A stretch of 64,000 bases of DNA from Selaginella moellendorffii (Eukaryota; Plantae; Lycopodiophyta), in contig NW_003314261.1 of NCBI RefSeq assembly GCF_000143415.4, positions 2,181,266 through 2,245,265 of the forward strand. Reading direction: 5' to 3'. The notes under the pieces are model-generated. The model did not search any database. It worked only from the letters and a program-made list of their open reading frames with translations, and was not told the origin of the DNA. This document shows positions 1-28,243 of the stretch, in pieces. Each line of letters begins with the position of its first letter. Within the stretch, counting starts at the first letter, position 1. A program made the translations under genes and the position numbers.

Positions 1-93
1 CATCATGCCCTTTCATCTTTAAGATGTCTACCTTTGGTCTTGCTTCTAGTGTGGACCTTGTACAATGAATGGATATGGATGGAGATGGGGACT

Positions 94-254
94 TGTGGCG
101 CATCTTATCTCTCTCCTTTTAAGCCAACCAGAAAAGGGGCAATTGTTTGATGAGAGAACCCTTAGTGGCTATTTTATCCCCATTATCCCCTAAAGTTCCA
201 AGGATCCATGGTAACAGTATATCCAAATCTCATCCCATGATCATATGCGCTACA
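94..254 (-). mobile_element. Solo LTR of the TRIM family seen intact at 23446-24103
   Basis: TG...CA ends; reverse complement of the 23446-23607 LTR; near-matching 5-bp flanks GGACT/AGACT. Confidence 0.8.
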
Positions 255-303
255 AGACTTGGCTAATTCCTAGATCCATTTTGACCATATGCAACAAGTT
301 TTA

Positions 304-2200
304 GGTTGGTCAACTATGGGAGCCCATGTGTATGATCATAAGTAAGTGGCTTTTCATTTTTTAAGGATTTTATACTAGTTTACATTATACCCATTCCTTC
401 TATAAATTTGTTGTGCAACTTAACTATAGCCATAGACTATAATCCAAGCTCAAACTATTTTTTAAACATGTTTGTCTGAGGTTGTTGAACAATGAATTGG
501 GAAGAAACCCAACTTCCATGGTTTTATGGCAGATGTTGCTGGTGCTAATTGGATGGCTGTACGGCAAGTGTTTAGAGGTGATAAAAGTCAGCCATTATAA
601 GGTAGAGAGAAGAGTTGTGAATTTCATTAGGCAAAGAGTGTCAACGAATATTGCTGATGTATCAAATCTGACCTCCATCACAAGTTCAAGCAGCTTTGTC
701 GGGAATGGATAAATGCACTAACTAAAGAGGAGTATGAGACAAAGGCAAATGAGATGTGCATATGGTGGCGTGAAGGAGACAAAATGCCAATTGAACACCT
801 TCCACAAATGGAATGTTGGCTTGTATGGTGAGAAATTCAAATGTTTCAATAGGGTCATTGTATTCTTCATGTAAACTTTCTCTCATTTTCTTTCTTGTCA
901 CATTCAAATGTTGCATTTTTCCTATGATCAACCACTTGATGACATAGCACTTACACCAACAATTAATCTCTCTGAGAGCAAACATTAGAGTTAGAGAGCT
1001 TCTGAAGTAGAGAACAAAAAGTGTCCCTCTATAAAGTTACGCTCTCCAACCTCACTAGATCTCTTGAGCAGTCATCAAAAGCTTTGGCTACATAGGAAGC
1101 AAGGTTTGCTAATATAGGTCCGAACTTAAACAAGTTTCCAGAGTGGGTTGGTAGAAGGACAACACCAGCAGCAAAATCAATGTCTAAGATGGTTTAGGAA
1201 GTTGTTGCTGGAACTCCTATGGAATTAAGTTATGAACCAGTCTAAAGATATGAGAACAACCCATATGAATCGTCAATAGACATTTGATGGGCAAAACATC
1301 ACTCCTTCTAGCTCTCACCGTCCAAAGTTTAACTACCATTTTATCCCACGACACTAGAAAAGAACTAAGGAAATGGAGTGGAGGAGGTGCCAGTTATTAC
1401 ACAAGTAAGTCTAGTGCTAGAGGTTGAAAAGGTTATTTCTCATGAGCCAGTTTCTTATATCAATTAGGCAATTCAAAGAGTCAATGCACGTTGCTCTAGA
1501 ATGATTGGGAGTCAAGGTTAGCGTCTTGCATTTGTGCGCTTAGGTTCAAGTTCTTCAGCAGCACCATGTTTCTGGGGTTGTCTAGATCTAGGGGTGAAGG
1601 GCTGCCAGTCAAGCTAGATTTATTGTTATAGGATTGATGTTACTTATACAAGCCAGATTCACAGCTCAATTATTTTGAAGCCAAATTTTGTGCCAAAGGA
1701 GTGGCCAGTTGAGCAAAGTTGCAATCTTTTAAAAAAAGAGATTGAAAGTCTAGAGAGAGCAAGTTTCAAGCTAAAGACTTCCTCAAATGTTGCTATTAAT
1801 ACTACTATGCCACCAATATCAACACTAGACCAGCATACACGACCAGCTAGGAATGGACAAACTGTATAATACAGGTCTTTCATTTCAAAAGGTGCACAAG
1901 AGAAGATCAAGCTGGCAAAAGACTTGAAGTGCACAATCACAAAGACAAACTAAATCAATGCTGTGGCTAAGGAGTTTATTGTTGTGACTGAGTCATCAAA
2001 GGGTATGAGCTACATTGTCAAAATCTGTGAAAATCCATCCTGTACCTATCCAGATTTTATACAGAGGGAGAACAGGGGAAAGGTATAATTAGCCTGCAAG
2101 CACATGTATTATATTTTATACAGGAACTAAACCAAGATCCTAAGATCGACCATCACATCCACTAGGCAAGCCTTACAGTTGTAGAGCTTGAGAAGTGTTT
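304..2200 (+). pseudogene. Decayed Mutator/MULE transposase with C-terminal SWIM finger
   Basis: Manual translation gives FHGFMADVAGANWMAVRQVF...REKSCEFH* (~515-630), PTINLSESKH (~955-985) and YIVKICENPSCTYPDF...ACKHMYY (~2010-2115). There are many in-frame stops. Confidence 0.75.
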
Positions 2201-3726
2201 TTAGATTTCTTTTAGTGTTTGGATCTATATTTATATTTGTATTTTATTGGTCAATTTTACTTGGAAATATAGAAAAAACAAAATTTGGAAGATATTAGTT
2301 TGGGAGGAACCAATGTTTTTCTTGTATTTGAGAAGTCATGAGCTCATGAGCTCAAAACCTACCTAGGCTCCAATGGTCATACCTAGTATTCCTACTATAC
2401 ATTTGGAAACCCCATAAAACACATATACACACATCTTTTATATGAGAGCTCACTTTGTTAATTTAGGTGTGGGAGTAACACCATCTTTTTCAAGATAATC
2501 TTTACATCCCATATAACTAGCAAATCTAACTAGTATGGTCCAACTAACTTAGTAATTCACAATAGGGTAAAGAATCAAAACCATGTTTGTTACTTTTAGT
2601 ATTAAAAAATTAGTCTTAGTGAGTACTATCTAATGAGATTGGCCAATTAGTCTTCTTGCATATGCAAAGAGAAAAATGATGATCCTAGTGGGTACATCTT
2701 TGGTTGTTGTGGCTTCATATGTGTCCTTGGGTATGGATTTTGGCACATACTATTTATACCATATTGTATGAGCTTTCATTTTGGGCTCATAAGATGGATT
2801 TGAAGCTTATGCTTAGGCTCATAAGTGAGGCACATACTTTGAGTTAGCAAAATTAATGTTAGCCTATCAATGGTCACTATAAATGGCTACCATATTACAA
2901 TGGGTAAATAAATTTCCTCTGGGTTTGCAATGAGTGGAAATAAACTAGTATATAACTATTTAATATGACAATAATGGATTTTTCCTAGATATGATTAATG
3001 AGTGGATCAATTAAAATTGTAGAGATTAATCTATTGGTTCAAGTAGTTAATGTCATACTCTTTTATAAAATTTTCTTAGATTGGACTAAAGACAATAAAA
3101 ATGCAAGTCTAAGGTTAGCCAAGTTAAGATTGAAAAAATAATTATCAAGGATGAAAGATCAAATACATAAATCCTGATCTTATTGCTCATATTCACATCA
3201 TGCAATTAAAAGTCCTTGTTTTTATGCATATTTATTATAGTGGTCTTATAAGTGGCATGCCGTGGATTAGAAAGTGGTCATAATGCTTAATTCTTTTCTA
3301 GGGATTGCTCCTTGAGTAGTTGATAATGCTATGTATTATAAATCTCTATTAGTGGGATATGTGATTTATATTGTATTTTGTTGTTTGAGTTGGCACTAGA
3401 TATTAACATAAAATTTTGTGGTAATGACATGGTATTGTTTGATTGATGATCAAGTTATTATAATTCTTGTATCATATCCTTGTAATTGTGGGTAATGTGT
3501 TTGCGAAATTACTTATTCAAGCAATGATCAATCCCAAAGTTATTGATGATGATATTAGTCTACTTGCAAATAGTAACATTACAGTACCTATTATATGCTA
3601 AGCTGGTGTTAGTACCTTAGTCTTAGAAAGTTTGCACAATGTGTTTTAAAAAAAATTATAACATTCATTTTATTATAACTTGTTGGTATATGTATTGATA
3701 TTGAAGTAAATTGTTGGATAGAAAAG

Positions 3727-4518
3727 TGTAAGCTCCTAAGTTTGGACTTCCTGGGAAGTCACCCAACCCAATACTATTCAAACCCAAGGATGCTTAACCC
3801 CAAATATCCCAAGACCCTTAACCAATTGGAAAAGGGGGTGCACTCTTATGTAAGCTCCTGAGTTTGGACTTCCCGAGAGGTCACCCAGCTTAGTACTATT
3901 CAAACCTAAGGACGCTTAACTCCAAATATCCCAAGACCCTTAACCGTTTAGAAAAGGGGGTGCACTCTTGTTCATGGGCCCTTTCCCTCTATATTTGAAC
4001 CCCATGGACCGTCTCTCAAGTCGTTCCCTTTGGTTGCTTACATCTTATTCATGGGCCCTTTCCCTCTATATTTGAACCCCATGGACCGTTTCTCAAGTCG
4101 ATCCCTTTGGTTGTTTACAATCCATCACACTTCCCTGCAAGTTCACGCCCTCGTGAACAGAAGCTGAGAGCCGCAGCTCTCCTGAGAGCCCCGCTCTCTT
4201 GACACCCTACCCCTCGGGTCGAGCCCAGTGGGAGCAAACTGGACCAGCCAGATGTCAATCAATATGTGGTGTAGTTCCCTTAGCCAACCAATAGAGTTGG
4301 ACCTGAGACCCTTCTGATACCAAATGTAAGCTCTTGAGTTTAGACTTCCCGAGACGTCACCCAACCCAATACTATTCAAACCCAAGGACGCTTAACCCCA
4401 AATATCCCAAGACCCTTAACCGATTGGAAAAGGGGATACACTTTTATTCATGGGCCCTTTCCCTCTATATTTAAACCCCATGGACCGTTTCTCAAGTCGT
4501 TCCCTTTGGTTGCTTACA
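3727..4518 (-). mobile_element. Cassandra-type TRIM retrotransposon (5S rRNA-derived LTRs)
   Basis: LTRs TGTAAG...TTACA at 4325-4518 and 3727-4119 (interrupted). The minus strand reads AGTTAAGCGTCCTTAGGTTTGAATAGTACTAAGCTGGGTGACCTCTCGGGAAGTCC, matching the 5S rRNA A/C-box core. PBS TGGTATCAGA lies at 4313-4322 (minus). Perfect TSD AAAAG. Confidence 0.9.
3849..4042 (-). mobile_element. Cassandra solo LTR nested within the LTR of another Cassandra
   Basis: Complete LTR flanked by TSD TCTTA (3844-3848 and 4043-4047). Removing it restores one host LTR. Confidence 0.85.
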
Positions 4519-4609
4519 AAAAGGTGTATTATTGAGGCATTAATATTGCTAACATTTGTGTTAATAGAAGTGGCAATATTATCATATGATAAGTAATTCT
4601 TGTAGCATA

Positions 4610-5300
4610 TGTGGTTTTTACCCTTTACCCTATGATGATTTACTATAGAATAAAAATGAAGTGGTTCTTAACCTTGAACACATATACCAAACAATAGAGT
4701 GGGATTTGAGTTTTAGGGTCTTAATGAATAGAAAGAGCTTATAGCCAAGGAGTGAATTTACTACACTTGAATAAAAAGGACTATCAAAAGGAATTTGAAA
4801 GGAATTATCAATAGGTAAATTTTGATACCCACTATCACATTTATGACATGCTCTCCCCCTTTGAAAACATTGATATCTTTGTTGATGCACACTTTAATGT
4901 AAACCACCACCAAAGAAACAACTTTAGAAAAAGTTTATGGTATTCATATTTTATGAGAAATGTACCAAACTTAAATGAGTTAATGGTTTGTCTAATGCAA
5001 ATGTGCTACCACTCATACAACTTTTAACCATCACTAACAAAAAAATGACTAATGGAGTCAGCCATTTTTGCTACTTTGGGTGTCACCCAACTTATAAAAA
5101 ATGATATACTTTTGTTTCCAAGTGAGATAGAGAAAAAAGCTAAAGGTATTAACCCTCATGAAACTTGTTGGTAAAGTTTAAATGAATTAATATAAATAAG
5201 TAGTTAGAGTTATTTACATCGTTATGCCCTTTAACTTTCCAACAAGGCAATTATTATGATCAAGGATATTGATTGCTCACTATAGTTCGAGAAGAAGGGA
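4610..5300 (+). pseudogene. Highly decayed Ty3/gypsy reverse transcriptase remnant
   Basis: YPLPYDDLL (~4619) followed by WDLSF and IFVD-like fragments in RT order; many stops. Confidence 0.4.
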
Positions 5301-5635
5301 AAGCCAGCCCTAGAGGAAGAAACCAATGAAAAGTCCAAAGAGAAAGATGAAGTGTTGCCAGGGAAGAAAGGGTGTGTGCAGGGATTCCCAATTTGAAACT
5401 TACTGTTATGAATGTGACTATGGGTGTTAAAAGTTATTTGTCGGCTAATCCATTTGGATATTCTTTCTTTACTACTACGATAGTAGGAAGTATTGGTTCC
5501 CTTTTCTTGTTTAAGTGTTAGTAAATTAGGCTTAACATCTGTACTTAGCCAGATGAAGATAAGGTAGGAACTTCTATATATTTCTTCTTGAGCATACTTG
5601 GCCTAACTTTTAATTCTTTTAATTCCTTATCTATA

Positions 5636-5659
5636 AAGCTCTATTTTGTTAAAGTGGGA
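5636..5659 (+). repeat. Left terminal inverted repeat
   Basis: aagctctattttgttaaagtggga, the reverse complement of 19502-19525 with one mismatch. Confidence 0.9.
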
Positions 5660-6065
5660 ATTGTCATTATCCCACTTGTAAAATAAGGTTTCTAAACCTT
5701 TATATAGTATATAAATATAACAAAATTTAACTACATTGAGGCACATGCCATTTTATTTTAAACAAGGAAATGTCTACTCAATCACTTCTCCTCTCCCTGC
5801 CACTGCTTCACCTCTCTCTTCTCCTTGTCATCGTCATCCAATTTCTTTCCATCCTTTTAATATTGGCTCAGTTGCTCCGAGTCTAGGTGGAATTCAATCT
5901 TTACTTTCCCCTTATTAATAAAACAACTTCGTAGACTTCCAATAACATGCTGTAACACTTCTAGTATAATGCAAATCCTCTCAAAGAATTGTCTTTTAAT
6001 ATTAATATAATGGCATGGAACCCCATGCCATAATAAGTTACATTTTTAAATAAATACATGCCATC

Positions 6066-6928
6066 TCAGACTATTATTTTTTGCCTCCAACGCTTATACA
6101 ATAATCTTGGAATTTCATCACTCTCCACACTATCAGGATTTAAACCCAATAGTAATGCCATCTCTTCTCTAATACGTCCACGCTCATGTTCAGTGGTCGA
6201 AGAACCCATCCGGTTGAGCAGATTATGGAGATGCGGATAGTGCTTGGCTAGACAATATACATGCCATAAATGATGACTGGTGTCTGTCCGATCAAATGGC
6301 TTCTGATATACCATTCCATCTGCCATTTGGTTGATTTCTGCAGCCACCTCCTGGACTGGCCGGTTCTCTATCACCATCGCTCCAAGCCGTTTTGCAAGGT
6401 CCCCCAGAACATACGGTTTCTTCTCCCTAGTTTCCATACTGCAAGAGATGGGGTGCACTGCATATGTGTGCGTGTTCGCTGCAGTTTTAATCGGCGAGTC
6501 ATCGATGATGAGGATTTCACTTGACCTAGCAGTCCGGTTCATCACTACAGCCTCTGGCTTGATGAAGATGGGCTTGCTACCCCTCACATGGACCATAGTC
6601 AAGCAATCCTCCTGCGTTAGGAGAAAGTCAAATGGTAATATTACTCGCGTCTGATTGTGCATCATCTGTAGCAATGTTAATGCATTGTGGTGCATCATGG
6701 ATGTCCAAACTCCCAATTGCAAATTGAACCCGGCCCTCTGTTTTAAGTGTCGCATGGTCATTATTAGATCCCACAGTTTCTCCCGTGTGATTAATGTGAA
6801 TCTGTCTCTTTTGACCAACTTGCAACCGTAGGCTTTGGAGGGTGCAGTGACATTCGAGGACGAGCCATGCTCATGGGAGAAAAGGACACCGTTCAGATCA
6901 AAAACGATACAGTACCTTTGCCGTGACT
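6066..6928 (-). CDS. FCP1/NIF-like HAD phosphatase domain (last exon of the cargo gene)
   Basis: HAD motifs in order: CIVFDLNGVL, LGVWTSM, FLLTQEDC, PIFIKP, ILIIDDSPIK. Confidence 0.85.
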
Positions 6929-9900
6929 CTGAAATGAAATGCGTCAGCATAAAAAATGGTACAAGTCAATTTTACCATCTACAATATTAGCGAATGGTGC
7001 TCCCGATGGTCGTTGAGAGGGTTTTAGTCGAGGAAACGTGAAGGGCGGAAATACTCTCCTCTGCAATGTGGGGTCAATCGCATCCGATGGCATGTGGGCA
7101 CATGCCATTTCAGCTGTAGACTCTGGTACAATTGGCTCAACAGTGGCATGGGGTGGTTCCGATGGCGTGTGATCACACGCCATTTCAGCTGGTGCCTCCG
7201 TTGGCAAAGTGGACATGACCGAACATGCAGCAGGGGTGGTGTAGGGAGGTTCCAACGGCGCGTAGTCAGACGATTGGGCACACGTTGAGTCCGTTGGAAA
7301 TGAGGATACGACCGGCTTGGCAGCTGGGGCGGCCTCATGCAAGTCCAATGGCGCCTGGTCACCGTCAGTTGGATACGTGGACAAGATTGACTCAGTGGTA
7401 TGGGCAGCATCAAGTGGAGCGTGGTCAGCTTGCTTGGTGTTGATATGGATAGTAGCCTCCACCAACTCTGATGACTCTTGCAGGCAAGTAGAGTCCACTG
7501 GCGGATCCATATGCATGTCCAAATATCTCCCTTCGATTGAGATGGTATCCTCCCTACTGGCTACTAAAAACAAACTCATTAGCACATTGAATCGACTATA
7601 CTGTATTTACCATCAACTGCTATTGAGGAACTAGGACCGATATCACTTGGGCGCACTGTTGATTCTGAAGGATTGGACATACGTTTTGACCCTTGCTTGG
7701 CACTATCCTTCCTCGACACTAAAGGCTAGAGTTTGTATCTTAATTCAACTACTTACCATTTGCTCTACAACCTACATGGACAATGTTAGAAATGGTAAAA
7801 GGTTAGGAATGGATGTACTATTATTTACCTGATGGTTTGTCTTGTATGACCTTCCTCCGCTGCTCTTTGGCCACCTCAGGCTGGCCATCGTCGTCATCAT
7901 CATCGTCGTTGTTATTGTGATCGTCACCATTGTGAGGACCATCCAAGTCCTCTTCGTCCTCCTCTTCTTCGTCCTCCTCTTCGTCCTTCTGCTCTTCCTG
8001 CTCATTATCTTTCTCTGGCTCCTCATCCCCCTCCTGCATTTCTTCCATAGGCTGCTCAGGTTGGATGGCTTGTTCTTCCAGGACCATCTTGGGAAAATCA
8101 TCTGGCCGAGTCTCCATCTCAAAATACAAGACATCCATAGCCTGTTTTAGTGCGTGACCTAGGACCGTATCCTCACTCGACTGTCTTAACATGGTTTTTG
8201 CATGTTCTTGCACCCTTCGAAGACGACGAGATGAGAAAAACATGGCCCTGACTTGAAAAGCATCCCTCATCCATTGTACCTCTCCATTGAGATTGGGGAA
8301 GGGGAGTCCGCCATAGGAATCTGAGTCAGGAGGTGGTGACTGGCTGCTTTCACTCAACCCTTGATCTGCAATGAATGGCATGAGCACACACGCCATAACC
8401 GCGAGGCATTACCTATCATCTTTTCGTTGCCCTTCTTCCTTTTCGAATCAAACGCCTCTGATCCCGACGACTGTCCAACGTGCTTTCGCTTTTTATGACC
8501 ACTGTCAGTTTGAGCTTGGCTGGTGCTTGCCTGTTTTGCCTTTGAAGAAGTGTCTCCTGCAAGGAATGGCATGAGACCACACGCCATTGCAAATATAATT
8601 TGTACCTCCTTTTTTCCTATTGCTTGTCTGTTTGTCCTTCTTCGACGCGCCACTAGTGTGCTTTTCAGTCCTCGTTTCTGAATATTCACAACGATCTATA
8701 ATCAAAATGGCGTGAGGCCTCATGTGACCTTACCTTGTGCAGGTTGTGAGCTCGGCCCAACATGGGTATCTTCAACAGTAGCTGTTAACGCCGTTTCAGC
8801 ATCTGGGGGTGGCCATACTCCTGCATACAGAGCTTGTGAGATAACATTTAAACTTAAAGTGCGTACTCACTAGGTTCGTAGAGAAGATACTGTTTTTCTT
8901 TGCCAACTGTAATTATATGCTCCATTGAAGTCACCTCTTCAATGGAGTTTGTCACCGCAACACACGGGACACCCTTGAGTAGTGCGGCTCGAAAGAATAG
9001 TCCGCCGCAGTTGTACTCGACAACACATTTGCCCTTGGAGTCGGAAGCAGGTGACCCACCCGCTATTGCATTGAAGACCCAGCTGAGCATTTCCCATGCT
9101 GCACCTAGAGCTTTCTTTGGATTCGAAAGCTCCATAGCCGTCTTTAGTTCCTCAGGCACGGGTAAATTGACCTCCCTCAGATCAATTTGATCGGCCTTGT
9201 CGAACGAAGCTGGGAAGTCACTCCAGTCCCACTCTGCTGCAGGACCAATAACAAGGGCGAGTGTGAAGATGCGGACATTCGTTGGTATCTTCTTCTTAGC
9301 CATTATCCCATGGATTTCCCACATCTCCTTGCCTTTCAACCGAGCCTTCACCTTGTTCAAGGCCTTCCAGAACTTGTGATAGGATTCGGAGTCGTAGATC
9401 ATATAGTGGACTGAAGATTCCACCTCCGCAAGTCCCACCATTAAGTCAATGATGGAGCTGACTTCGTCTGCATGAGTGATCTCCTCGTTTGTGAAGTCCA
9501 TCACACAAAAGATGTTCTTGACCTGCTCATCTCCGCGGGAAACGATGCTCCTCCACCTTTGATCCTCATCCGAATTCACGTATACCCGGTAAGGTTCTCG
9601 ATAGGCCTCTGCTGCGGGGTCGAGCTGTTTCTGAAGCCGGCGGTCAACATCCCTCTTAATGAAATTTAGATACTGATCCAACTTCTCAGCTTTACTTTTC
9701 GTGGCATCCCGCAGCAGATCGATGAACTTGGGGTCCCCCTTCACGTACTCGTCGATGTCTTCATTTGACAACTCCAGCGCTTCCATCATCTCTTGCGTGG
9801 TGTTGATGCTCACCCTCTCCACGGCCACTTGCTCAAAGATCCAATCCTTCAATAGCGCACGAACTCTCAGAGTCGTGCACAAGTCCTCGTATGTCACAAT

Positions 9901-11668
9901 ATGGCCGGGAGTCATTTTGGTCTTGTTGAAGACTACCTCACCACGTAGAAGAGCATTAGCCACTGTCAGAAGGTCGTCGTCGTCTAGAGACAGCGAGAAA
10001 CGCAAGGCGTTGAGCTTCAAATCATTGGGCTTCCGGCCGTCCTCCACACCCATTGAGTTTAGCAACTCCCCGTCATGGTACCTCCTCAGCACATCTACCC
10101 ATTTGTCAAAAACAACTTTTGTCGCGAGTTGAATGTTATGGATGCTGAGTGTGTCATGACCCCCAGTGTTTTCGAGAGAAGACTCGAGAATTCCTGCAAT
10201 GGAAATGGCATGAGGCCACATGCTATGCAACATGCAACGAGGCTTACCTGCCAGGCGCTAGTTGCTAGTGCACGTCCTTGTCCTGGTTTTTGTGGCTTCT
10301 TCAGTTGAACCCAGAGCTTCCGTGTTCGTGCCAATATCTCTTGCAGACCCGATTTGTAGCACGTTTCTTACTTGACATTCTGCGTGTGGGAGATGTATAT
10401 GATAGATCGAAGGGGCGAGTTGCCTTTTATCAGGCGGACAACTCTTGTCTTGAAGACTTTCTTCACCTCCTCGCCCACCATAATATCCACAACTATCTCT
10501 TGCATCGCCAAGCTAGAATGCTGCCCGGAGACGGCATAGAATTGGATGTTCTGATCATCCAACACCTTCCTATTGATCAAGTCTGGAAACCTCATCTCGC
10601 CCTTCATTGTTCGGTAGTAAGGGATCACGTCTGCAATGTCGGGTGTTACTGGACTTGCCAGCATCTTCTGCTTCAGTTTCTCCACCCACTCATCAAATAC
10701 TAGCCTGTGGTTGTATTTGCTTTGGATGTCGATACGGCTCACGTCGATTGTATATACTTTGTTGGAATAGTAACAAGTACTATTATCTGCGATGATTTTT
10801 GCTGCCTCTTCTTGCTCTTTCTGCTCTTTGTGGCTCTTCTTTTTGGTGGGTGTAGTGTTCGAACCCGAGGCAATGGCATCACCGAGTAGCTTCTTTTTTG
10901 GAGCAGGAGAGTCGGACGTCGGCTTGAGCTTGACCACCCTTTTCTGCTTTGGGGTAGTTTCCAGATCGACCCCCTTCCCCTTCACTTCGCAAACTGGAGG
11001 CACTCTCAACGGCTCAATGTTGGAATATAGTTTTTGAACATCGCTGTAGGTGAGGTCCGTGGATTCCATGTGATCTTCATAGACCCGCAGCGTCTTTGAA
11101 ATTGTGGGCCTCCTGGACAACCTCTCCCTAGCTCCCTCTAGGAATTCCTCATAGCCGCTGCCCCCCTCCGGGAAGCCGCTAGGATGTGCAAGGTGGATCT
11201 TGAAGGCGGACGCTGTCTCTACCACAAGTGCCAGTCCATATTCTTGCATGGAACTGCATGGAGTGTCTGACACTTGGATGAGGATCCCCATGCATTCTTT
11301 TCTCCCACCATCTGTGTTGTACAGCCTCAGATCCTCGCCTTCCATCCCAAAAGTCCAACTGGTGAGCTCCTCCCCCTTCTCTACATCCACATTGACAGTG
11401 GCTGGAAGAAGAACGCAATTCCTCGCCTGTTCAGAAATGCACAATAATTAGAGCTAACAGATGAAAAGCTAGCAGCTAGAAATAACGTAAGGCCACACGC
11501 CATTCACCACTGCATCAGATGTCTTGAGGCTGCATCCTAAGATGGCATGAGGCTACACGCCATCTGTAACCGGACTGCACTCGAGAGCCCAATCGGTGCA
11601 TGCCAATGTTGTTACTGAATAGCATGTGGCCTCATGCCATTTTCTACTTGGCCTAAAAGACTTACCAT
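6066..11668 (-). pseudogene. Multi-exon cargo gene: ParB-like + degenerate DNA MTase-like + acidic linker + FCP1/NIF HAD phosphatase
   Basis: ORFs 10368-11444, 10095-10334, 8854-10233, 8354-8689, 7821-8396, 6944-7585 and 6066-6950 join through GT-AG introns (11427-11665, 10194-10247, 8821-8870, 8678-8733, 8557-8605, 8366-8412, 6929-6975). Splicing at 7560-7828 is unresolved. Motifs: YAVSGQHS; VVEYNCGGLFFRAALLKG; IVFDLNGVL/VWTS/IIDDSPIK. One in-frame TAA (10368-10370) and a probable frameshift near 10160. Confidence 0.7.
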
Positions 11669-12330
11669 TTGAAGCCGAATGGAGGCGTGACAATCGAGGC
11701 CGAACTCGCTGGCGAATGTGCACTATGTGTGCAGCGGGAGTCGTAGCAGGAAGGCTACTCTGCCACTTGCAGTTGGAGAGTGTCACTGAAATCTCCCGAG
11801 ACGCCAACTGGGCTGCGTGTGGGTGTCCGGAGTGGTGCGGCGGAGTTGGCGGCGAAGTTACAAACTGGGTGTGTCTTGAAGTGGACGCCGATGCACACGA
11901 GCGCGATGCGAGGCGCGAGTGTGATGCAAGCGCTAGTGGACGCCGATGCACACGAGAAACCTATAGAGAAGGTAGATGAGCGCGAATGTGAGCGTGATCG
12001 CGATGCGAGCGCGAGTGTGCAAGCATGAGTACGATGCAAAACCTAACCTCACACGCACAAAATGTCACGACGGTTGGTAATCCCGCAACGTCATCATTCC
12101 TCGGACTTGGGCACCACCATTAATTTCTGGATCGCCACGCACATGCATGCACGTGAAATCCAAAAGAAATCCGCAACATCATCATTCCTTGGACTACATG
12201 CACACGAAATCCAAAAGAAAGATCATGATTGGGATATCATTTAATACCCTCGCTATATTTATACCATGCATGATTGGATATTCCAAAGCATCTTGTATTT
12301 CCAAAAATGCCAGATGTTTAGCTAAATAAA

Positions 12331-14260
12331 GAATGGTATACAATGTCCTTCTTGATGACTCTGCAAAGAAGCATCTTGATCGGACACCACATGAGACCAC
12401 ATGAGCCTTACAATGTTTCAGGGGCATTTGCCATAGATCCGACCGTTATTTTGCTCCAAGATTCTACAATTTGGTGTGCATTGACCTTTCCATCGACACT
12501 GCAAAGGGACATCACAATCAGATGCGAGATCACAAGAAACCAACTTCACTAACTCTGGTTTCACCAAGATCTACGTAAGGAGTTATGAAATGAAAGGACC
12601 CTTTCTATTGAAATGTGTTTATGGTCCTGACATATCAAAGGATTTTGCATCAAGTTCTGTATTTGCATGTTTATCAAGCTACTGAATTGCTAAACCCTAA
12701 ACCCTAAACCCTAAACATCTGGCAAATACTGCGTGAAGTAAGATGCCCTTTCTGGGCAAATGCTGTAAGAGGCAGATGCCGAGCAGTTACACGGCGAATA
12801 ATCTTGGCGCGGATCGCTGATATGGCATGGCAAAGTTTGAATCACTGACATGGCACAGCTGGATCGAGGCAAGGACATGATGTGACAAAGTTCAACGTCC
12901 GACAGCAAAGTCTAAAAGCTACTCAGTTTGAAATTTGTCAGAGGAATTATAAGATCTGGTTTGTCAGAGGATTTGATGTGATGTTCAAGCGTGTGGGCTC
13001 ATGCAATTTTGATCCCAAAAAATGCACCAAAAAATGCTCGGCGTCATTTGGCGTTATCTCTTGAATGGTGTGGGGCCGCATGCCATTTTCAGGGGCACAT
13101 AGGAGTATAGTCCTAGAATATTCTGACATGCGCGAGATTTTTTTGAGTTTTCTGGAGATCCAACCGTTAGATTGCAACTAGATTTTACAGAATGGTATAC
13201 AATGTCTTTTTTGATGACCCTGCAAAGAAGCATTTCTATCGGACACCACATGAGACCACACGAGCCTTACAATGTTTCAAGGGCATTTGCCATAGATCCG
13301 ACCGTTATTTTGCTCCAAGATTTTACAGTTTGGTGTGCATTGACTTTTCCATCGACACTGAAAAGGGACATCACAATCAGATGCGGGATCACAAGAAACT
13401 AACTTCACTAACTCTGGTTTCACCAAGATCTACGTAAAGAGTTATGAAATGAAAGGACCCTCTTTATTGAAATGTGTTTATGGTCCTAAGGGCATTGTGA
13501 CATATCAAAGGATTTTGCATCAAGTTCTATATTTGCATGTTTATCAAGCTACTGAATTGCTAAACCCTAAACCCTAAACCCTAAACATATGGCAAATGTT
13601 GCGTGAAGAAAGATGCCCTTTATGGGCAAATGCTGTAAGAGGCAGATGCCGAGCAGATATATCTCAGGCTAGCGAAGGGGACAAACGAAAGCTAGCTATA
13701 AACATGACAGGATGCAAATAGATTACTAGGCTGGTCCTGCGAAAATCAAAAACCATAATTGAAAACATTGAAAATGCAAAAAGAAAGGTTTATAATATTT
13801 TTGAATTTTAAGCAACCAAAGGAATGTAAGTAGGGCATGTGTTTGTAAGTTTAAAAATGCCTCAACCACTTAAATTCCCAAGAAAATAAAGCTGTTTCTA
13901 TTTTTAGCACAGGTAAACTTTATAGCGTGTGGGCTCATGCAATTTTGAACCCAAAAATGCACCAAAAAATGCTCAACTAGCATTATTCTTTGAATGGCAT
14001 GTGGCCTTATATTGCCATAAATGGACGTACACACACAGCATAATTATTCCTTTACACGGCGAATAATCTTGGCATGGATTGCTGACACGGCATGGCAAAG
14101 TTCGAATCACTAACATGGCATAGCTGGATCGAGGCAAGGACATGATGTGACAAAGTTCAACCTCCGACAGCAAAGTCTAGAAGCTACTCAGTTTGAAATT
14201 TGTCAGAGGAATCATAAGATCTGGTTTGTCAGAGGATTTGATGTGACGTTCAAGCGTGTG
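12331..14260 (+). repeat. Shuffled direct repeats between the two divergent transposon genes
   Basis: Block A 12331-12786 ~ 13190-13656; block B 12787-12995 ~ 14052-14260; block C 12988-13076 ~ 13924-14005. Confidence 0.9.
12690..12716 (+). repeat. Short (CCCTAAA)n plant telomeric/telo-box tract; second copy at 13560-13586
   Basis: ctaaaccctaaaccctaaaccctaaac in both copies of block A. Confidence 0.9.
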
Positions 14261-14880
14261 TTATTTTTGAATTCTCGAACTCATTCCTAAGTCTATCATT
14301 TTTGTGCGCCGTGTTCTTGGTTCCGCTGAGCGTAGTGAGCACTGCTTGTGTAAGCGGCGTTGTGAGCTGTGGTTTATGCGTCTACAAGCGGTTGCGGCAT
14401 TGCGAGCGCCATTGCAAGCGGCAGTTTATGCGAGTGGCAGTTTGTGCGAGCGGCGCTACGAGCAGTTGCGGTGTTGCGAACGGCGCTACGAGTAGTTGCG
14501 GTGTTGCGAGCAACACTGTCTTTGGTGTGGCTACCGCTTCCTCTTGATATTCAGCACTTGTGCTTCCTGGTATGTTCACCATGGAATGGCTTAGGACCAC
14601 ATTTAGAAATGGCATGAGGCCACATGCCATCTTGGGCCCTTGCAATTTCATTGCTAGCATATTGTCATATATGTTTTTACTTGCCTGCAGTTGTGTGTAT
14701 ATCAAGATGGCATGAGGCCTCATGCCAATTTTGTGAATGCGAAATTTCACGTGGGTGTCAATAGCATGTTTGAATAATGGCATGTGGCCTCATGCTATTG
14801 AGGTTGTTTGGTATGTTATGATTTAGGCCATTCTCCAATCATTTTTTGTATGGTCTTAACTTCTTTTCTGCACTTTCAGA

Positions 14881-17800
14881 ATGGCCTTCAGGGTTGGGGA
14901 AAAGGTTTACATTTTGAATGGTGGGAAGAGAGTTGCAAAAGGGACCTTTGTGTCTATGGATCGGAACTTTGTTATACACTGTCAAAGGCTTGGGGAAGGC
15001 AATGCTGCTGTATCAGTAGAGACTGTCTTCGATGGGAATGTGGTCGCTATTGAACGAGGAGAGATGGTCGTCAGGGTAAATGTTGTTGTTGCCTTGAAAA
15101 ATCTTCAGAAGAAAGCAGATGTTGGGGACAGCGCAAGTGCGACGCATGTTCCCTCCGTGGATCTTAAGAACCGTGCTACATGGATTCAGGCAAAGGTTTT
15201 TCTAAACAACCCCGAGGGGGAGGTGGTAGCTGAGGGCTTAGCCACAGTTGTCAATCCAAGAGATGCGGTTGCTAATCAAGAATTGGGCTGGGATGATATT
15301 GGAGTTGCGATTTTAGAGGTTGTTGACACAGAAGAAAACAGTTTGACTATTGGAAGTATTGTGCAGTGGAAATTGAGGCACTTAGTGTTTGAGAATGTGA
15401 AGGATTCACAATCAAACACCACTACAACTGATGACAGAACATCTCTTCATGGGAAAAGAAAGTACACCTTCCTAAAGCGTAACCAAAGGGATCTGAGCAA
15501 CGAACCAAAAAGGCAGAAAATGGCGATGGAGGTTCGAATGGTCTCGACAGTTGCTTGTTGCAAGAGGAGGTGCTATCAACATGCTGATTGGGATGCTATT
15601 GAAGAGGAGAGAGCAAGATACAAGACATTGTCCTGGAAGGCAGCTCGCAATTTTGTGTATGAGGCATTACGGTCATCTGTTGATGATTCAGAATATCAGG
15701 TGGGGGGCATGGTCTTCCAGAGGGGTTTGGTCTGCATGAAGGCATGGAGAATCATTTATGGAGTCCCTCAAACCACATTCTATAGAATCAAAACTGAGTT
15801 CGAGGAACAAAGGGTTCAACAGGCAGTCCATGGGAACGACGGTATGCACAAAACCAGGGGTCATGTTGTATATGGAGAGGCAATCTTCAAGAGGTTTGTC
15901 GAGACATGTAGCGAGCAGCAACCACATAAAACCCGCCTCTTGGAAGATGGAACACGAGACACCCAACGAGTTCTCCCTTCCATGTATACCAAGGGGGCCA
16001 TATTGGAAGATGTGAATCGGGAACTCCAGAGTAATGGCTACAGGAAGCTGAGCCAATCTAGATTTAGTAGATTGTGGAGCAACAAGTTCAGGGATGTGAG
16101 TATAGGAAAGTACTCCAGCTTTTCAAAGTGTGACGAGTGCACTGCTATCAAAATGGCTTTGTCGAAGAATTCTTGCAACGCTCAAGAGTGAGAGACGTTG
16201 GTTAGAAGGCGGCTCGACCACAACATCGAGCAGAGAAGCTGCAAGACTGCATATTATCATAACAGGATTCTCTCCATGGAGAGACCTAACTCTTACCTCT
16301 GCATCATCCACGACAAAATGGACCAGAAAAAGACGTGCTTACCTCGACTCAATCCTGCCCCCAAGGCAATCTCTTCATCCATGCAGCTGCCTGTGTCTCT
16401 ATTTGGCATAATCGCTCATGGGCATGGTGCCCAGAACTATGGGAACTTCTTTGTACCTCTATGGGGTGGCGGGGGTGCAAACATGATGATTGCGTCCCTA
16501 GCAAAACACTTAAGGTCTCTGCAAAGTGTGCAGACTGAGCTGAACAGCTAACCCTTGCATAAGGCCCTTGTCGATCGAACCCCATACAGGGTTCAGCTGG
16601 AGGAGGAGCAAAGGCTTGCAGTATCGCGTGGGGCCCCATGCCATCCCAGTGAATATGTTGGCCGTCAGATTGTAGGGTTATCACGTGAGGCCTCATGCCA
16701 TTCCGACGAGGCTGGTCGCCCGGTGAATGCACAGCCTCATCCAAACGAAGCAGAATCTCAAAGAAGTTCTTGCGGCCGATGTGGCCTTCCACCCCATCTT
16801 CTGCTCCAAACAGACAATGCTGGCAGTGAGAACAAAAACATGTACGTCTTCACGTACTTGGCGATGCTTGTTGCCAAAGGCATATTTGAAACGGTTACAC
16901 TTGGCTTTCTCATGGTTGGGCACACTCATGAAGACGTCGATGCCATGTTCAGTCACCTGGCAGAGTCCCTCCGGCGATCCAATGTCCTCACCCTCCCACA
17001 ACTCTACGATGAATTCCAAAATTGCATCAAAGGCACTGTTGAAGCTGCACTTGTGACAGAGGTTCCAGACTTTAAGGGGTTTGTAAGAGGCTACATCAGG
17101 GACGGATCCGAAACGCTGATTGGCCACTCCAAGCCTCTTCAGTTTCATTTCAGCATGCGTGACGGTGCTCCAGTGATGAGGTACAAGATGAGAGAATGGG
17201 ACACAGTGTGGCTGCCAGTGGATGGCATTGAACTCTTCAAGAGAGATCCCATAACTGGGGAACCTATGATTCCTCAGGGTTCCCCACGGCCGATGCACCC
17301 GGATGGACTCAAAGACCAGGAAAGTATAGTGGCCGGGATTAGACAGCATATTGCCTTCTGGAAGAGGGGGTTGGTGTTTGGTGGAGAATCTTATTTTAAG
17401 AGGTGCAAGCCTTTGCTCGAATACTGGGAGAAGATTATATCTGCTATCCAAAATGGGCCGGTTGTATATGAAGAATTGGAAGAGTCCTTTTGGCCAGAAC
17501 CCAGAGCACCAGATAGTAGTGGAACAATGTCCTCTGGAAATGCAGTGACAGATAACGATGTTGAGGATCACTATTGTGGGCCGAGGAACAAGAAGCCGGA
17601 TTCAGCATTCAATCCAGTACAGGTCTGCAAAGGAATGGTCGTGCTTGTCAGACCCAGTAATAAAAAACAAATGATATGGGTGGGGCACTGCATCACTGAT
17701 GCAGAGGAGGACGCGGAAACTAACTCCTTCAATGTAACTGTGGAGTGGTTCAAGCCAAGTTCCGGATATACGAAGGATTGCCTAGAAAAGAGATGGGTGC

Positions 17801-18022
17801 TGAATCCAAGGGATCCCAGTATGAGCATATCGGTGGATAATGTTGTGCATGGTTGGATGCGGAAGCAGAGTGCCACCATCACCTTGCCAGACCATGCAAG
17901 AGATGCAACAAGAGCATTCATAACCCGGGTTCAAGGTGAGATTCATTAATATTCCTTTATTAAGTTTCTAATGTATTTTATTTCAAGGTGAACAATCCGA
18001 ATCTGAATCAGAGGAGGCGTGA
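14881..18022 (+). pseudogene. Sola1-like (DUF7869-type) DDD transposase, ~1030 aa, with two in-frame stops
   Basis: ORFs 14881-16191, 16198-16551 and 16555-17949 share one frame, broken only by TGA 16189 and TAA 16549. Motifs FSKCDEC, IIHDKMDQKK, LQTDNAGSENKN and FLMVGHTHEDVDAMFS. Probable short last exon GEQSESESEEA* after an intron at ~17936-17987. Confidence 0.85.
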
Positions 18023-19501
18023 TGGCATGTGGCCTTACGCCATTCCTAGGTGAGATGATACAAATAACAAGTATAAATTCTTAGTTGTTCTAGCAAATCT
18101 TACTTAAAGTTCAAGGTGAACAAGCCGAATATGAATTCATCGGATTGTTATAACAAATTGCAAGGTGATGGCATGAGGCAATACGCCATTTGAGAGTGGT
18201 AGCCATTCCTATATGAGGTGAGTGAAATATTTATTAGAAATACCTCATTCAATTGTGCACTTCTAAGTTTTGGTCCACTCAGTACTGTTTGCATGTTTCT
18301 ATTTTAATTCTTTCTCTAAAATGTTATTTAGCATGTGGCTTCATGCCATTGCTCTCCACAATCATGCATTGAATTTTTCTATCCTTGCATAATACTTCTC
18401 CATATATATAGCATGTGTGCACATGTGATATGGTTCATTAGGCCTGATATAGTGTGTGAGGTAAAACAAAGATGATGTGACATATGCATTTACCAATCAC
18501 ACGTGCATAAATCTAATAATATGGCGTGTGGCCCATATTAATGGCACATAAACCCATATTATGGGCTTACGTGCTTTATGTACCATCATTCCCTTGCAGT
18601 GTGTGTGTTGGTTTCCTTTTATAACACAACGAACTCCATATTTTAGGGTGAAGAGCGTTCTCATGGCAAGCACAAAATCTGTAAGTGAGGTAGAAAAGGA
18701 GACGGAGAAGGAGATAGGTGAAGATGTAGAATATATAAGTCTTCCAAACTCCCCGTACTATACTCCAGGTGATCATTTTTCTGAACAAACGGCAACATTA
18801 ACAACTATCGAGAACGCCCCAGTAACGTCAGAGACAACAATCCAAAGCAAAACAACTGACCCGGAGAAGGATGATAGTACCGCTGAGAGTACAAAAAGGA
18901 GGTGTCCACTAGCACTTAGGCTTATAATGGTGTGTGCCGTCATGCCATTTAGAGAAATAGAATGGCATGTGCCCTCAGGCCTTTTACTAAATCACCTTTG
19001 AAAGAAATGCAAGCCTCTATGTCATAAAAAAAAGGTACTAGAGAAATTCCTTAATAATATGAATGTTATTTAGTTTCATGAAAATACACTAAGGGTCAAA
19101 TGAGTTAAATGACTTCTCCAGACTAGCAATGCCTCTTGCTACACCTTCACAATTAGATTCGTTAGAAAAAGATAACATTGAATAATATCTAAATGTTCTC
19201 ACCATTAAGTTATATGTTTGGCTAATAGGAATGACGTTCATCTTGGAAAGCTCACCAGATGCTCAATGAACAAACAAATAGTGTGTGCGCACATGCCATC
19301 GCTCTTCTTTAGCTTCAGATTCGACTTGTTCACCTTGACAATGAGATTTATTATACAACCAGATGGACTCAGTCTGGACACAAAGTCACCGCGCTAGTCA
19401 CCATGCCCCAGATATGTCTAGCCCCTGGACAAAAAACATATAATTTCACGTCATTTTCAAATACTTGAAAATTTGTACCTAGTCCCATTTTACTGAATAA
19501 A

Positions 19502-19525
19502 TCCCACTTTAACGAAATAGAGCTT
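19502..19525 (-). repeat. Right terminal inverted repeat
   Basis: tcccactttaacgaaatagagctt followed by TATA. Confidence 0.9.
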
Positions 19526-19644
19526 TATAGTTTTTTGTTCAACTGGAGGCTTCAACTCTAGAGGAGGTTCCATCTTCGCCTTGGTTCTTTTATGCCCTGC
19601 TTATATCCTTTGCTAGAACTGAGGAAAAGGCTTTGATACCAAAT

Positions 19645-20454
19645 TGTAAACCACAAATTTTTCCTTTCTAATTTGCTAGTTTACTTTGTCCATCCAACCA
19701 CCACTGCCTTGGCCTTAATTAAATTCTCTTGCCAAAGTTTCTACCTATGGTACTAACTCCCATTTGGTCCTATTTGACTTTAGCTACTCACTGCACAAGC
19801 AACAAAGTGTTAGCCATCCATTCATGAATTCCCAAATTCTTTCCCAACCCCCCTCCTCGGGTTAGACTGGATTTAAGGTTTGACTACCCTTCATACAGGC
19901 ATAAGTAGCTAAGCACACGAAACCTCCAGATTCCTAATATCCCTTGGCATAATAAGACTTGATCATAGGACCCTTTAAATCTCAAGCCTTGGGTGCAACA
20001 CTTGCTTCAAAACACCAGGGGGAAACACCATGGCCTAGCAGCTTAGTATAAATACCCTTACTCCCACACTTCTATCCTAAAATGAAGGCACAAGCCCCTA
20101 GGAAAGGTGAGGACTAATGAGTTGCAAGGTACTCAAGTGGGGCACCACTCCACATGAGTCGGGAGCATTGCAATTGGTTTCCTTCAAAATTAGTTTTTGG
20201 ACCTCACTATCTCTACTATTCTTCTGCCCGCCCCACCCGGCCCACCCCCCCCCCCCCCCCCTATCAGATGAATGCTTTGAGCTTTCATTCCACAACCTAT
20301 ATTAGTATTTGGACTCGGTCTTAGACTCGATCTCGAACCTGACCTTGGACTCATTTCTAGACTCGATCTTAGACTTAGTCTTATCCAATACCATTCTAGT
20401 TGTGGTTCTCGGGATCATTTAACCTATGACACTTCAAGGAATTGGTTCCTTACC
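19645..20454 (-). mobile_element. LTR of a decayed LTR retrotransposon, with adjacent PBS
   Basis: Begins TGTAAACCAC, preceded by GATACCA (reverse complement of PBS TGGTATC). Homologous to 20926-21122, 26741-27923 and, inverted, 28244-29352. Confidence 0.75.
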
Positions 20455-22149
20455 ACCTATAAAAGAAGTTCAATACCTATATTGAATATCTCTTTTTAAT
20501 TCTATGATTTGTTGACTATGTCTCCAAGGGCATCCCCCCACTTAGTGGTGTGCTTAAGTAAGCCTATTTAGTTAAGAGTTTATAACAATGGGATACAAGT
20601 GGCTCTATACCCTCGAGAAGTATTTCACCTTTCCCAACATATCAAATAAGTCCTTAATTCTTGATAAAGGGTACTTGTTTTTCTTAAATGTTCAATTGAG
20701 CCTTGGACGACCGAACCTCTCCACTAAACTTCTGTTTGGAAGTTTCCTTATTAGAGTTGTCTTCGTGCAAGGATTCCTCATCCATAACTTCTTGTTTGAC
20801 TAAAGGCTCAAGCTCCAAAAGAGGTTCTATCTCTGCCTTGGTTCTTTTATACCCTACCTTAGCCATCTCTCAGTATTCCACCTCTATCCTTCACTAGAAC
20901 TAAGGAAAAGGCTCTAATACCATATTGTAAGCCATAAATTTTTCCTTTCCAATTTACTAGCTTACCTCGTTTATCCAAACACCACGGCCTTGGCCTTAGT
21001 TAAGTTCCCTCGCTAAGGTTCTTGCCCATTGTACCATCTCCTACTTGGTCCTATTTGGTTTCAGCAACTCACTACATGAACAACAAAGCATTAGCCATCC
21101 ATCCACAGCTTCTCAAATTCTTTAGGACTCGAACCTAACCTCCATAGAATACATCTATGGATTCAACATCCTCCTAGGGAGTCCAATGAAGCTAACTATG
21201 CTTGGCTAACCCATAGTAATTAGTTTACCTTCGGCACGCCTTCGAGTCCCAATATGTGACAATGCTCATTTTCACAAATGGATACTTTAATTGAACTTTA
21301 CATAAATACATAAAGTTTTACCTTGCCAAAATTCCTCCAATAAATCTCGCACATTCGCCAGGTTCTCTTTCGGTTCCCATATTGCTTTGTAATGTGGAAA
21401 TCCTTTCTATTTCATATGGAACTCCCTCACTTCATGTCCTTGTCACTTGCTCTTATGTGCATTGAGAATGGCCTCAACTTTGTATTCCTCTTCCTCTTGG
21501 ATAACCTTAAGTAAATGTCTTATTTGGTCCTTGCGAAGCGGATCCTCAAAGTAAGTTCATATGGAATATAGAGTGTATCTTCCCCATCTCTTGAGAAAGT
21601 CAGAGGTGGTAAGCCATTTTACCAATTCGAAGCTTAATCTTATAAGGCCTCACAAACCTACTTAAGGAACTTAAGATTAGTTTATTTCTAAAAATATATA
21701 CATTTTACCTTTGGGTCAACTTCTAGCTGATCCCACTTGGTAACCTTAGGTTCTTAGTGTTCAGCCACACCTTCTCCCCAAGTTCGAACTTTACATCCTG
21801 GCTCTTCTGATTGTAAGACATAAATCCCTAAGCCCTAAAGTGGAGCCAAAAGGGTAATAGCTGAAGCAGAAGCTAAATGAGGGTAACACATTTGGACTAA
21901 AAGCTTTGACTTGGATAGTCAAGAGTGGGAGTGGAACTCCCAACGAAGTGCTCGAGAAATGAGCTCGAAACAAGCAGTAAGTGAGTCTCTAGAAAAAGGA
22001 CATAAAAGGACCAACACATAACACATGGAAGTGTTAAATAGAGTTTGAGAAGGAGTTTGAGATGGAGAGCACGAAGCAAGCAGTAAGTGAGTCTCTAGAA
22101 AAGGGACATAAGAGGACCAATATATAACATGTGGAAGTGTTAAATAGAG

Positions 22150-22795
22150 TTCGAGAAGGAGTTGGAGTCCAAGAAAGAGTCTAAGATGGAGTTTGAGATA
22201 GACCTGAGTGTAAGCTCTTAAGTTTGGACTTCACGGGAAGTCACCCAACCCAATACTATTCAAACCCAAGGACGCTTAACCTTAAGTATCCTAAGACCCT
22301 TAACCAATTGGAAAAAGGGGTGCACTCTTATTCATAGCCCTTTCCCTCTATATTTGAACCCTTATGGATCGCTTCTCGAGTTATTCTCTTTGGTTTCTTA
22401 CATTGAGAAGGAGTCTGAGATGGACCCAAGATGGACCTGAGATAGAGTCTGAGATGGACCCAAGACAAAGTCCAAGATGGAGTCCGAAATGAACCCGAGA
22501 TGCAATCCAAGATAGATCTGAGATGGAGTCTGAGATGACTCCAAGATGGAGTCCAAGATGGAGCCTGAGATGGACCCAAGATGGAGTTCAAGATGGACCC
22601 GAGATGGAGTCCAAGATATACCTAAGATAGCTTCCAAGATGGACTTGAGATGGAGTCTGAGATGGACCCAAGATGGAGTTCGAGTTCAAGATCGAGATTG
22701 AGACTGAGACTGAGGCTAAAACCAAGACCGAGACTGAGATTAAGACCGACTCTGAGACCAAGTCTGAGTCCAAGTCTGAGTCTGAGTCTGAGGGT
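22150..22795 (+). repeat. Degenerate 12-bp/6-bp tandem minisatellite ((C)CRAGATGGAS / GAGWCY)
   Basis: Runs such as gagatggagtctgagatggacccaagatggagtt; similar hexamer arrays at 20310-20382, 27332-27415, 27695-27843 and 28324-28572. Confidence 0.85.
22209..22402 (-). mobile_element. Cassandra solo LTR
   Basis: Close copy of 4325-4518 with TG...CA ends; flanks CTGAG/TTGAG. Confidence 0.88.
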
Positions 22796-27923: not shown

Positions 27924-28243
27924 TTTGTTTGGCTCTATTTGGCTCCATTTTTCTTGCTAATTTTGGCATTAGGATGTTAGATACTCTAAAAATGTTCCTA
28001 CATCTCTTTGTGCTTTTGTCCCTTCGCTCATTGGGTTAAATGTTTAAGAGTCACTCTGTGCTTTGATTCATTTACTCCTTGGTTGCAAGTTTGGGAGTTT
28101 GGCTTTGTACCTTCATTCAGTGGCCTAAGGCCTTGAAACTTAGATTCTACTCCACTATCTTCAGACACAAGGCATGTAACACGTAGCACATGGTAGTTTA
28201 AGTTTCCTTTGTGTTTATCCTATAAATCACAATAAGATCAAGG

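Follow-up and report, generated by a model that had tools for sequence, protein, structure and literature searches.

In a 64,000-nucleotide stretch of the Selaginella moellendorffii genome (contig NW_003314261.1, positions 2,181,266 to 2,245,265 of the forward strand, hereafter the window), a DNA transposon of 13,890 bp with two divergent genes (5636..19525, strand not assigned) carries many copies of a 22-nt quasi-palindrome with the consensus ATGGCRTGWGGCCWCAYGCCAT. The copies are confined to the transposon and strongly avoid coding DNA for folded protein. We consider that a dimeric protein encoded by the element, likely the product of its accessory gene A (6066..11668, minus strand), probably docks on the 22-mer as double-stranded DNA, and that ordinary introns likely tolerate the site by using its CTCAT arm as branch point.

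Distribution of the palindrome

At up to three mismatches, 24 matches to the palindrome were found in the window, compared with a mean of 0.57 and a maximum of 5 in 30 composition-matched simulations. A weight matrix yielded 26 sites, all within 6010-19299, i.e. inside the transposon, and none in the ~50 kb remainder of the window, of which 34 kb of gene-dense host DNA holds no copy. An exact scan of metagenome contigs for the palindrome gave 0 matches. One site lies just 3′ of the gene A stop (6010..6031, mismatch scan), and two are exonic in gene A (7087 and 7162, within 7087..7183, minus strand), where they belong to a short duplicated unit (family D16). Apart from the sites in the introns of gene A described below, the weight matrix placed seven in the intergenic region and the predicted 5′ untranslated region (UTR) of the transposase gene B (12986, 13065, 13922, 13994, 14609, 14707 and 14777; 12986..14798), two in exons of gene B (16623..16701, plus strand) and seven 3′ of the gene B stop (18022, 18168, 18328, 18408, 18927, 18962 and 19278; 18022..19299). 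The sites at 18022 and 18168 belong to predicted 3′ UTR exons, not introns. An intron-plus-exon unit is duplicated at this end of gene B (17936-18220, plus strand), with a palindrome in each exon, and the palindrome of the first exon overlaps the gene B stop codon.

Seven sites fall in 736 bp of coding-region introns (9.5 per kb), 15 in 5145 bp of other non-coding DNA (2.9 per kb) and four in 8009 bp of coding sequence (0.5 per kb), so that 22 of the 26 sites are non-coding and 19 lie outside coding-region introns. The depletion in coding sequence is strong (p 1e-5), and the excess in coding-region introns over other non-coding DNA (p 0.015) shows, within this copy, an intron bias of the kind that an earlier note on this DNA had asked for across the family. 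A preference for introns in gene B was rejected, as only one of the 12 sites from 14609 onward falls in the four modelled gene B introns. All four coding palindromes are situated in low-complexity or length-variable linkers. Those at 7087 and 7162 indeed encode MACxxxP peptides (MACAHMP and MACDHTP) in the low-complexity linker of gene A, as described earlier; the other two occupy a length-variable transposase linker between the first and second catalytic motifs and are also translated in the sister-copy protein P0024. Site clusters lie ~0.7-2 kb apart and are spaced more evenly than random (coefficient of variation 0.29-0.38, p 0.003-0.010, post hoc test), which also holds when the internally duplicated cluster is left out (p 0.002-0.045).

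A different palindrome in a related element

Five loci were obtained from metagenome contigs, among which L001-L003 were kept as true relatives; L004 and L005 were dropped as short weak matches of 40 and 13 residues. L003, a DUF7869 element with 45% identity, contains 10 full copies of a palindrome that is likewise 22 nt long, CCCACGGGTG-NN-CACCCGTGGG, with a 2-nt centre and a sequence unrelated to the 22-mer of the window. Seven copies are arranged in 47-bp tandem units upstream, one lies at the start of the open reading frame, and two come after what is likely an intron donor of the transposase gene, at a point where homologues continue (palindrome-bearing stretches at 49-353, 672-693 and 2834-2977 of L003). 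Neither the window motif in L003 nor the L003 motif in the window element was found.

These data bear on whether the motif could be a neutral, functionless by-product of local duplication and conversion that has been purged from folded coding DNA. Neighbouring sites do lie in short duplicated units (7087/7162, 17936-18220 and a duplication at 12.3-14.3 kb), but the 22-mer is kept although the flanks are unrelated at most sites, its dyad symmetry is maintained, the clusters are evener than random, and L003 keeps a different palindrome of equal length. Such a neutral origin is therefore quite improbable in our view.

Palindromes in predicted introns of gene A

Gene A was modelled with 11 exons, and all of its introns are on the minus strand. 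Predicted intron 1 (11427..11665, 239 nt) holds three palindromes (11482, 11542 and 11619). Four small predicted introns hold one palindrome each, namely intron 2 (10194..10247, 54 nt, phase 0, palindrome 10205-10226), intron 4 (8678..8733, 56 nt, phase 1, palindrome 8707-8728, which adjoins the donor and has 3 mismatches), intron 5 (8557..8605, 49 nt, phase 1, palindrome 8566-8587) and intron 6 (8366..8412, 47 nt, phase 1, palindrome 8375-8396). All four are exact GT..AG segments, as the earlier note had stated, and its observation that the palindrome ends 9-11 nt before the acceptor in three of them was reproduced (9, 9 and 11 nt in introns 5, 6 and 2). The description of these introns as made largely of the palindrome was overstated, since the palindrome accounts for 22 of 47-56 nt, or 39-47% of their length. 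The idea that every intron has a site was also discarded: 5 of the 10 introns of gene A are palindrome-free, namely intron 3 (8821..8870, 50 nt, phase 1) and the phase-1 introns 7-10 (7772-7828, 7719-7756, 7564-7610 and 6929-6975, within 6929..7828).

The reading frame supports splicing, because 3′ of a frameshift in the window copy eight successive phase-1 introns give 1232 open codons, and retention of 8821-8870, 8678-8733, 8557-8605 or 8366-8412, each tested, leads to a premature stop. Intron 2 is a stop-free multiple of three, and the frame therefore says nothing on it. At its junction, WQ|EF, the alignment to the host homologue P0041 (23% identical to gene A) scores 160 when spliced and 132 when unspliced, and two annotation models of the P0041 locus differ by 2 residues exactly at the junction point, suggesting, as judged from protein models, that this locus has an intron at the same position. 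From these features we infer that the introns of gene A are spliced as predicted. In addition, the eight successive phase-1 introns (6929-8870, minus strand) are combined with symmetric exons across the disordered linker of gene A, so that skipping any one of them would preserve the frame; among these exons is one of 15 nt at 7757-7771.

The small introns are of normal size for the host. The Selaginella median is 59 bp (PMC3729371, Table 3), and the intron length distribution of Selaginella is described in a part of PMC6157073 as sharply different from that of other land plants. Heuristic prediction, restricted to lengths of 40-120 nt and with a filter for T-rich sequence, gave 29 host introns in the window; their median is 60 nt, and 14 of them are 45-60 nt long. 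The view that these introns, called tiny in the earlier note, are special in size was accordingly abandoned. Its picture of introns as slots that let sites be spaced through coding DNA agrees with the site density in introns and with the even spacing of the clusters; the introns were, however, not made for the palindrome, given their host-typical size, the half of them that is palindrome-free and the position of 10194-10247, which is apparently shared with the homologue.

Introners are introns alike over their whole length that have spread into unrelated host genes, with positions that are recent, lineage-specific or polymorphic. The palindrome introns resemble them in being short and having a common motif, and three of them end in the palindrome followed by T(T)C[CA]TTGCAG; a unit that brings along both a branch point and an acceptor could give rise to an intron. 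The likeness does not, however, extend beyond the palindrome and the final 9-11 nt. Identities between the 5′ parts of the introns are 10/20, 12/20 and 6/19 (p 0.09, 0.025 and 0.93), where the weak similarity of introns 2 and 6 (12/20) is uncorrected for multiple comparisons and introns 5 and 6 are unrelated (6/19). Moreover, neither the motif nor such introns occur in the host DNA and host genes of the window, palindrome-free introns of equal size and phase adjoin, a contig of sequencing run X2 over 7192-10830 showed no intron-less form, and intron 2, the only one of introns 2 and 4-6 with a homologue for comparison, seems to occupy a position that predates the motif, as its spliced junction is matched in the host homologue (23% identical). 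An introner-like spread by insertion, one of the options of the earlier note, fared poorly in these tests and is the least probable of the explanations considered here; the small introns are probably not mobile.

The palindrome arm at the probable branch-point position

In six of the eight palindrome-free small introns of the element, the adenosine of a CTNAY motif lies 14-17 nt before the intron end (in intron 3, CTCAC at -17). In introns 2, 5 and 6, the sole CTNAY is the CTCAT of the palindrome itself, and its adenosine is at -18, -16 and -16, respectively. Random placement of the palindrome would put CTCAT in the branch window in 16-23% of cases per intron, and the occurrence in three of the four palindrome introns has a chance probability of ~0.02 (hand calculation), a value weakened by the possible shared ancestry of introns 5 and 6. 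Intron 4 offers an in-frame AG ending at 8696, 11 nt past the palindrome, which would give a 38-nt intron with CTCAC at -18. The palindrome thus likely doubles as the predicted branch point of small introns, with CTCAT being the putative branch point used in splicing. Its location at the branch-point position would explain the offset of 9-11 nt between palindrome and acceptor, a likely cause that the earlier note had missed.

Double-stranded DNA site or RNA hairpin

The centre of the dyad, GGCC, keeps at least 3 of its 4 bases in 20 of the 26 sites; it is self-complementary and unable to pair inside a hairpin. Only 9 of the 26 sites have complementary bases at palindrome positions 9 and 14. 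Together with the 19 sites outside coding-region introns, the conserved non-pairing centre and the rare complementarity fit a dyad read on double-stranded DNA.

Alternatively, splicing of gene A might be regulated by the palindrome folded into an RNA hairpin, which could, for instance, mask the branch point or acceptor until protein binding. CTCAT indeed lies inside the 3′ arm, and the folds of introns 5 and 6, at -14.5 and -16.2 kcal/mol against -0.7 to -9.3 kcal/mol in four palindrome-free introns, pair the branch adenosine along with part of the acceptor region. In the minimum-energy folds of introns 2 and 4, however, only 5 palindrome pairs are kept. The unpairable centre, the usually non-complementary positions 9 and 14, the sites outside coding-region introns (some of them intergenic) and the 2-nt centre of the L003 motif, which is too short for a loop, also argue against it. 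The splicing-regulatory hairpin proposed in the earlier note is thus a weak candidate, and we regard it as very unlikely.

Gene A and its product

The product of gene A is predicted to consist, in order, of a DUF3723-like region, a helical region, a degenerate N4/N6-methyltransferase-like region, a long disordered linker and a C-terminal NIF/FCP1-like phosphatase domain. The NIF match has an E of 6e-5 (Pfam), DUF3723 in the N-terminal region received an Atlas score of 0.96, and N6_N4_Mtase received 0.88-0.90, which serves as a lead only. We take DUF3723 to be a ParB-like family. It is likened to TIGR02168, and ParB is unmentioned, in the accessible portion of the Starship preprint (bioRxiv 2021.12.13.472469).

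The window copy of gene A is damaged by a premature stop (10368-10370) and the frameshift near 10156. Run X2 is DNA-like; it has a word depth of 61-130 across all 30 gene A bins and contains neither lesion. It differs from the window mainly by C for T on either strand, and 28 of the 33 checked transition sites are in CG or CHG. These differences indicate that the element is presumably a member of a repeated family, of which the window copy has decayed under methylation.

Two word-based searches found no homologue of gene A among longer proteins, and a scan of viral contigs gave no relative of its N-terminal region. A HMMER search with gene A returned 2 matches, of which P0001 is real and P0002 is a spurious repeat protein. 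The former belongs to a 449-aa Selaginella protein (LOC9650508 and LOC9646204; P0001/P0041/P0042/P0043) that matches only the middle of gene A at 23% identity, pairing with the helical and methyltransferase-like regions (window 8872-10367, minus strand). This host protein is possibly a domesticated derivative or part of a distant element.

A proposed model of docking and its possible purpose

In the proposed model, an element-encoded dimeric protein, most likely the gene A product, would dock on the double-stranded 22-mers. Selection would keep a site cluster every 1-2 kb, for which introns, UTRs and disordered linkers would offer the room, and minimal introns would accept the palindrome because one arm supplies the branch point. 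As to the purpose, our first choice is that docking would mark the whole element as self and preserve its accessibility or expression in the face of host methylation, in the way that VANC acts for VANDAL; our second choice is that docking would help in assembling a transposition complex over 14 kb.

A more specific version is that DUF7869 transposons of plants possess a ParB-parS-like system of their own, in which a captured ParB/pseudo-methyltransferase/phosphatase fusion would load at palindromes every 1-2 kb and spread over the 14-kb element as a self-marking, anti-silencing coat, with family-specific 22-mers whose arm, as branch point, is read both as DNA and as RNA. We offer this version tentatively and think it rather unlikely in its entirety.

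Several results weigh against the docking model and its parts. No spliced joint across the introns of gene A was found in four sequencing runs, so that the junctions drawn in the earlier note find support in the frame and the host homologue and none in reads. Contigs of X1 and X2 cross the introns unspliced, and both runs may be DNA; the raw RNA run X8, of which ~12% was read, gave zero reads over the four introns, and the read coverage excludes gene B and the right end of the element. A look-up listed no RNA data set containing gene A, an outcome that carries no weight as to its expression. The branch window of -14 to -18 has a per-intron chance of 3-11% and was chosen after looking, and the test of cluster spacing was likewise chosen after looking at the data. 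Introns 5 and 6 may not be independent, their last 9 nt being near-identical. YTNAY at -15 to -18 occurs in only 4 of the 29 predicted host introns, and the branch position is therefore calibrated on the element alone. No repeated palindrome was found in L001 and L002 (2.5-4.3 kb, mostly coding). As for gene A, searches of Pfam, PHROGs and PDB sequences gave nothing significant for a ParB or methyltransferase identity, and AlphaFold single-sequence models of its N-terminal region had pLDDT values of 34 and 32 and were unusable. The CTP-binding motif GxxR of ParB carries an arginine; the stretch of gene A at the place of this motif, a correspondence made by eye, reads SGQHSSLA. Finally, the main analysis covers a single element copy in the 64-kb window.

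Other readers of the sites were considered as well. The DUF7869 transposase itself might bind the sites, or the gene A protein might do so as a mere TnpA-like (En/Spm) cofactor that gathers the ends, with no anti-silencing role. In accord with this, clusters are found close to either end (6010; 18927-19278) and surrounding the starts of the two genes, the palindrome array of L003 directly adjoins the transposase gene, and the N-terminus of the window transposase (14881-15430, plus strand) weakly matches Transposase_23 (TNP1/En/Spm; E 0.007, under the cut-off). TnpA sites, however, are subterminal; here most sites are kilobases from the ends, inside genes, and the motif is absent from the terminal inverted repeats. 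We therefore judge this possibility unlikely. In L001, several repeats of a domain similar to the transposase N-terminus appear by eye.

Host transcription factors exploited for tissue-specific expression might also recognize the sites, which lie around both gene starts and contain the words CATG and GTGGCC, resembling plant factor sites. On the other hand, the window's 34 kb of gene-dense host DNA contain no copy, a dyad of 22 bp would be long for such a factor, and the relative L003 uses an unrelated sequence. Such host recognition seems to us very improbable, slightly more so than the hairpin.

Comparison with known systems

The closest working likeness to the docking model is VANC/VANDAL, of which the Selaginella element does not appear to be a member. 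The accessory proteins VANC21 and VANC6 bind short motifs in introns and other non-coding parts of Arabidopsis VANDAL elements; VANDAL relatives carry different motifs, often in tandem units, and binding and demethylation have been shown for VANC (sections of PMC5735166). VANC is derived from MAIN, according to the available text of PMC13547354. On the basis of these partial sources, VANDAL resembles the Selaginella element in being a two-gene DNA transposon with an accessory gene and with an element-specific motif in introns, intergenic DNA and terminal non-coding DNA, and in having relatives with different motifs, in tandem units as in L003. The enrichment of the motif in non-coding DNA (22 of 26 sites, p 1e-5) is also a VANDAL/VANC feature. 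In contrast, the motifs are 8-9 nt long in VANC, as far as these sources go, versus a 22-nt dyad in the Selaginella element; VANDAL has a Mutator-like transposase versus DUF7869 with a 4-bp duplication; and the Selaginella motif overlaps the branch-point position of 47-54-nt introns. Pfam gave no VANC or MAIN-like match in the gene A segments.

ParB-parS systems (Noc, KorB, VirB and BisD) also have several copies of a long palindromic site, and VirB is a ParB-type anti-silencer, in what we could consult of the literature. Unlike in these systems, the GxxR arginine is absent in gene A by the same by-eye correspondence, and the Selaginella element has no ParA-like gene. We treat this as a resemblance only. 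As to a ParB/sulfiredoxin fold in the N-terminal region of gene A, the Atlas score for DUF3723 is 0.96, the model has pLDDT 32, and neither Pfam nor PDB sequences gave a match. ParB-linked methyltransferases are reported from phages, algae and chytrids, and the architecture of gene A is not among them in the part of PMC4738411 available.

By its catalytic motifs and 4-bp duplication, the transposon appears Sola-like, and it is set beside Sola1 here by description. Sola1 is known from Physcomitrella (excerpt of PMC9033089) and has the target preference AWWT (excerpt of PMC3845634). The two share three-aspartate catalytic motifs, short inverted ends, a 4-bp duplication and a non-seed-plant host; they differ in the target, TATA in a single insertion versus AWWT, and in the large accessory gene of the Selaginella element.

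In the open-access literature, which leaves aside most subscription papers and Repbase reports, neither DUF7869 elements nor palindromes of this kind were found described, and besides VANDAL/VANC our literature search found no described case of a transposon protein recognizing the entire length of its element. The new points are that a DUF7869 element from a plant has been delimited exactly, that a relative carries a 22-mer of its own, and that the site overlaps the branch-point position. If the docking model is correct, the lycophyte element would represent a second, unrelated solution to whole-length self-recognition. It would rely on a long dyad, would have another reader, and its sites would be specific to each family, as in the window versus L003. 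A sequence serving as site and branch point at once would be a compact example of dual coding, placing a 22-bp site in coding regions at no cost where introns are barely 50 nt. If, moreover, the reader is a ParB-type clamp, this would be a eukaryotic use of the bacterial partition principle.

Limits of the transposon, gene B and surroundings

The limits of the transposon were defined by its inverted ends and by comparison with an empty site, a paralogous LTR (long terminal repeat)-element flank elsewhere in the window, to which a gap-free alignment is obtained only with a 4-bp TATA duplication. The target-site duplications are at 5632..5635 and 19526..19529 (both plus strand). They enclose terminal inverted repeats of 24 bp at 5636..5659 (plus strand) and 19502..19525 (minus strand), which agree in 23 of 24 bases.

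Gene B (14881..18023, plus strand) encodes a DUF7869 DDD-type transposase (PF25273, E 9e-40) and has two in-frame stops in the window copy. It has 38 homologues, and those named include liverwort (Riccia and Calypogeia) and two animal proteins. The motifs HDKMDQ, QTDNAG and GHTHEDVD are conserved in transposase alignment A2 and presumably represent the catalytic aspartate triad. Between genes A and B there is an internal duplication (12327-12995 / 13186-14260, 92-96% identical), both copies of which contain a short TTTAGGG telomere-like run.

The DNA transposon sits within a fragment of nested LTR-retrotransposon debris, which occupies 1-5631 and 19530-30000. The right part includes a match to a reverse transcriptase RNase H domain (25700-26338), and repeats with a 12-bp period occur in the debris. 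The remainder of the window (30000-64000) is a gene-dense host region with matches to Myb, DnaJ, WD40, GLTSCR1-like and potassium transporter sequences. A DnaJ protein of the host DNA near the element groups with a protein of Selaginella moellendorffii. In intergenic DNA of this region, half-sites resembling the palindrome were noticed at 37520-37575 (half-site 37540), under the matrix threshold, and may reflect chance or a decayed fragment. The host region also contains numerous predicted introns of 45-85 nt.

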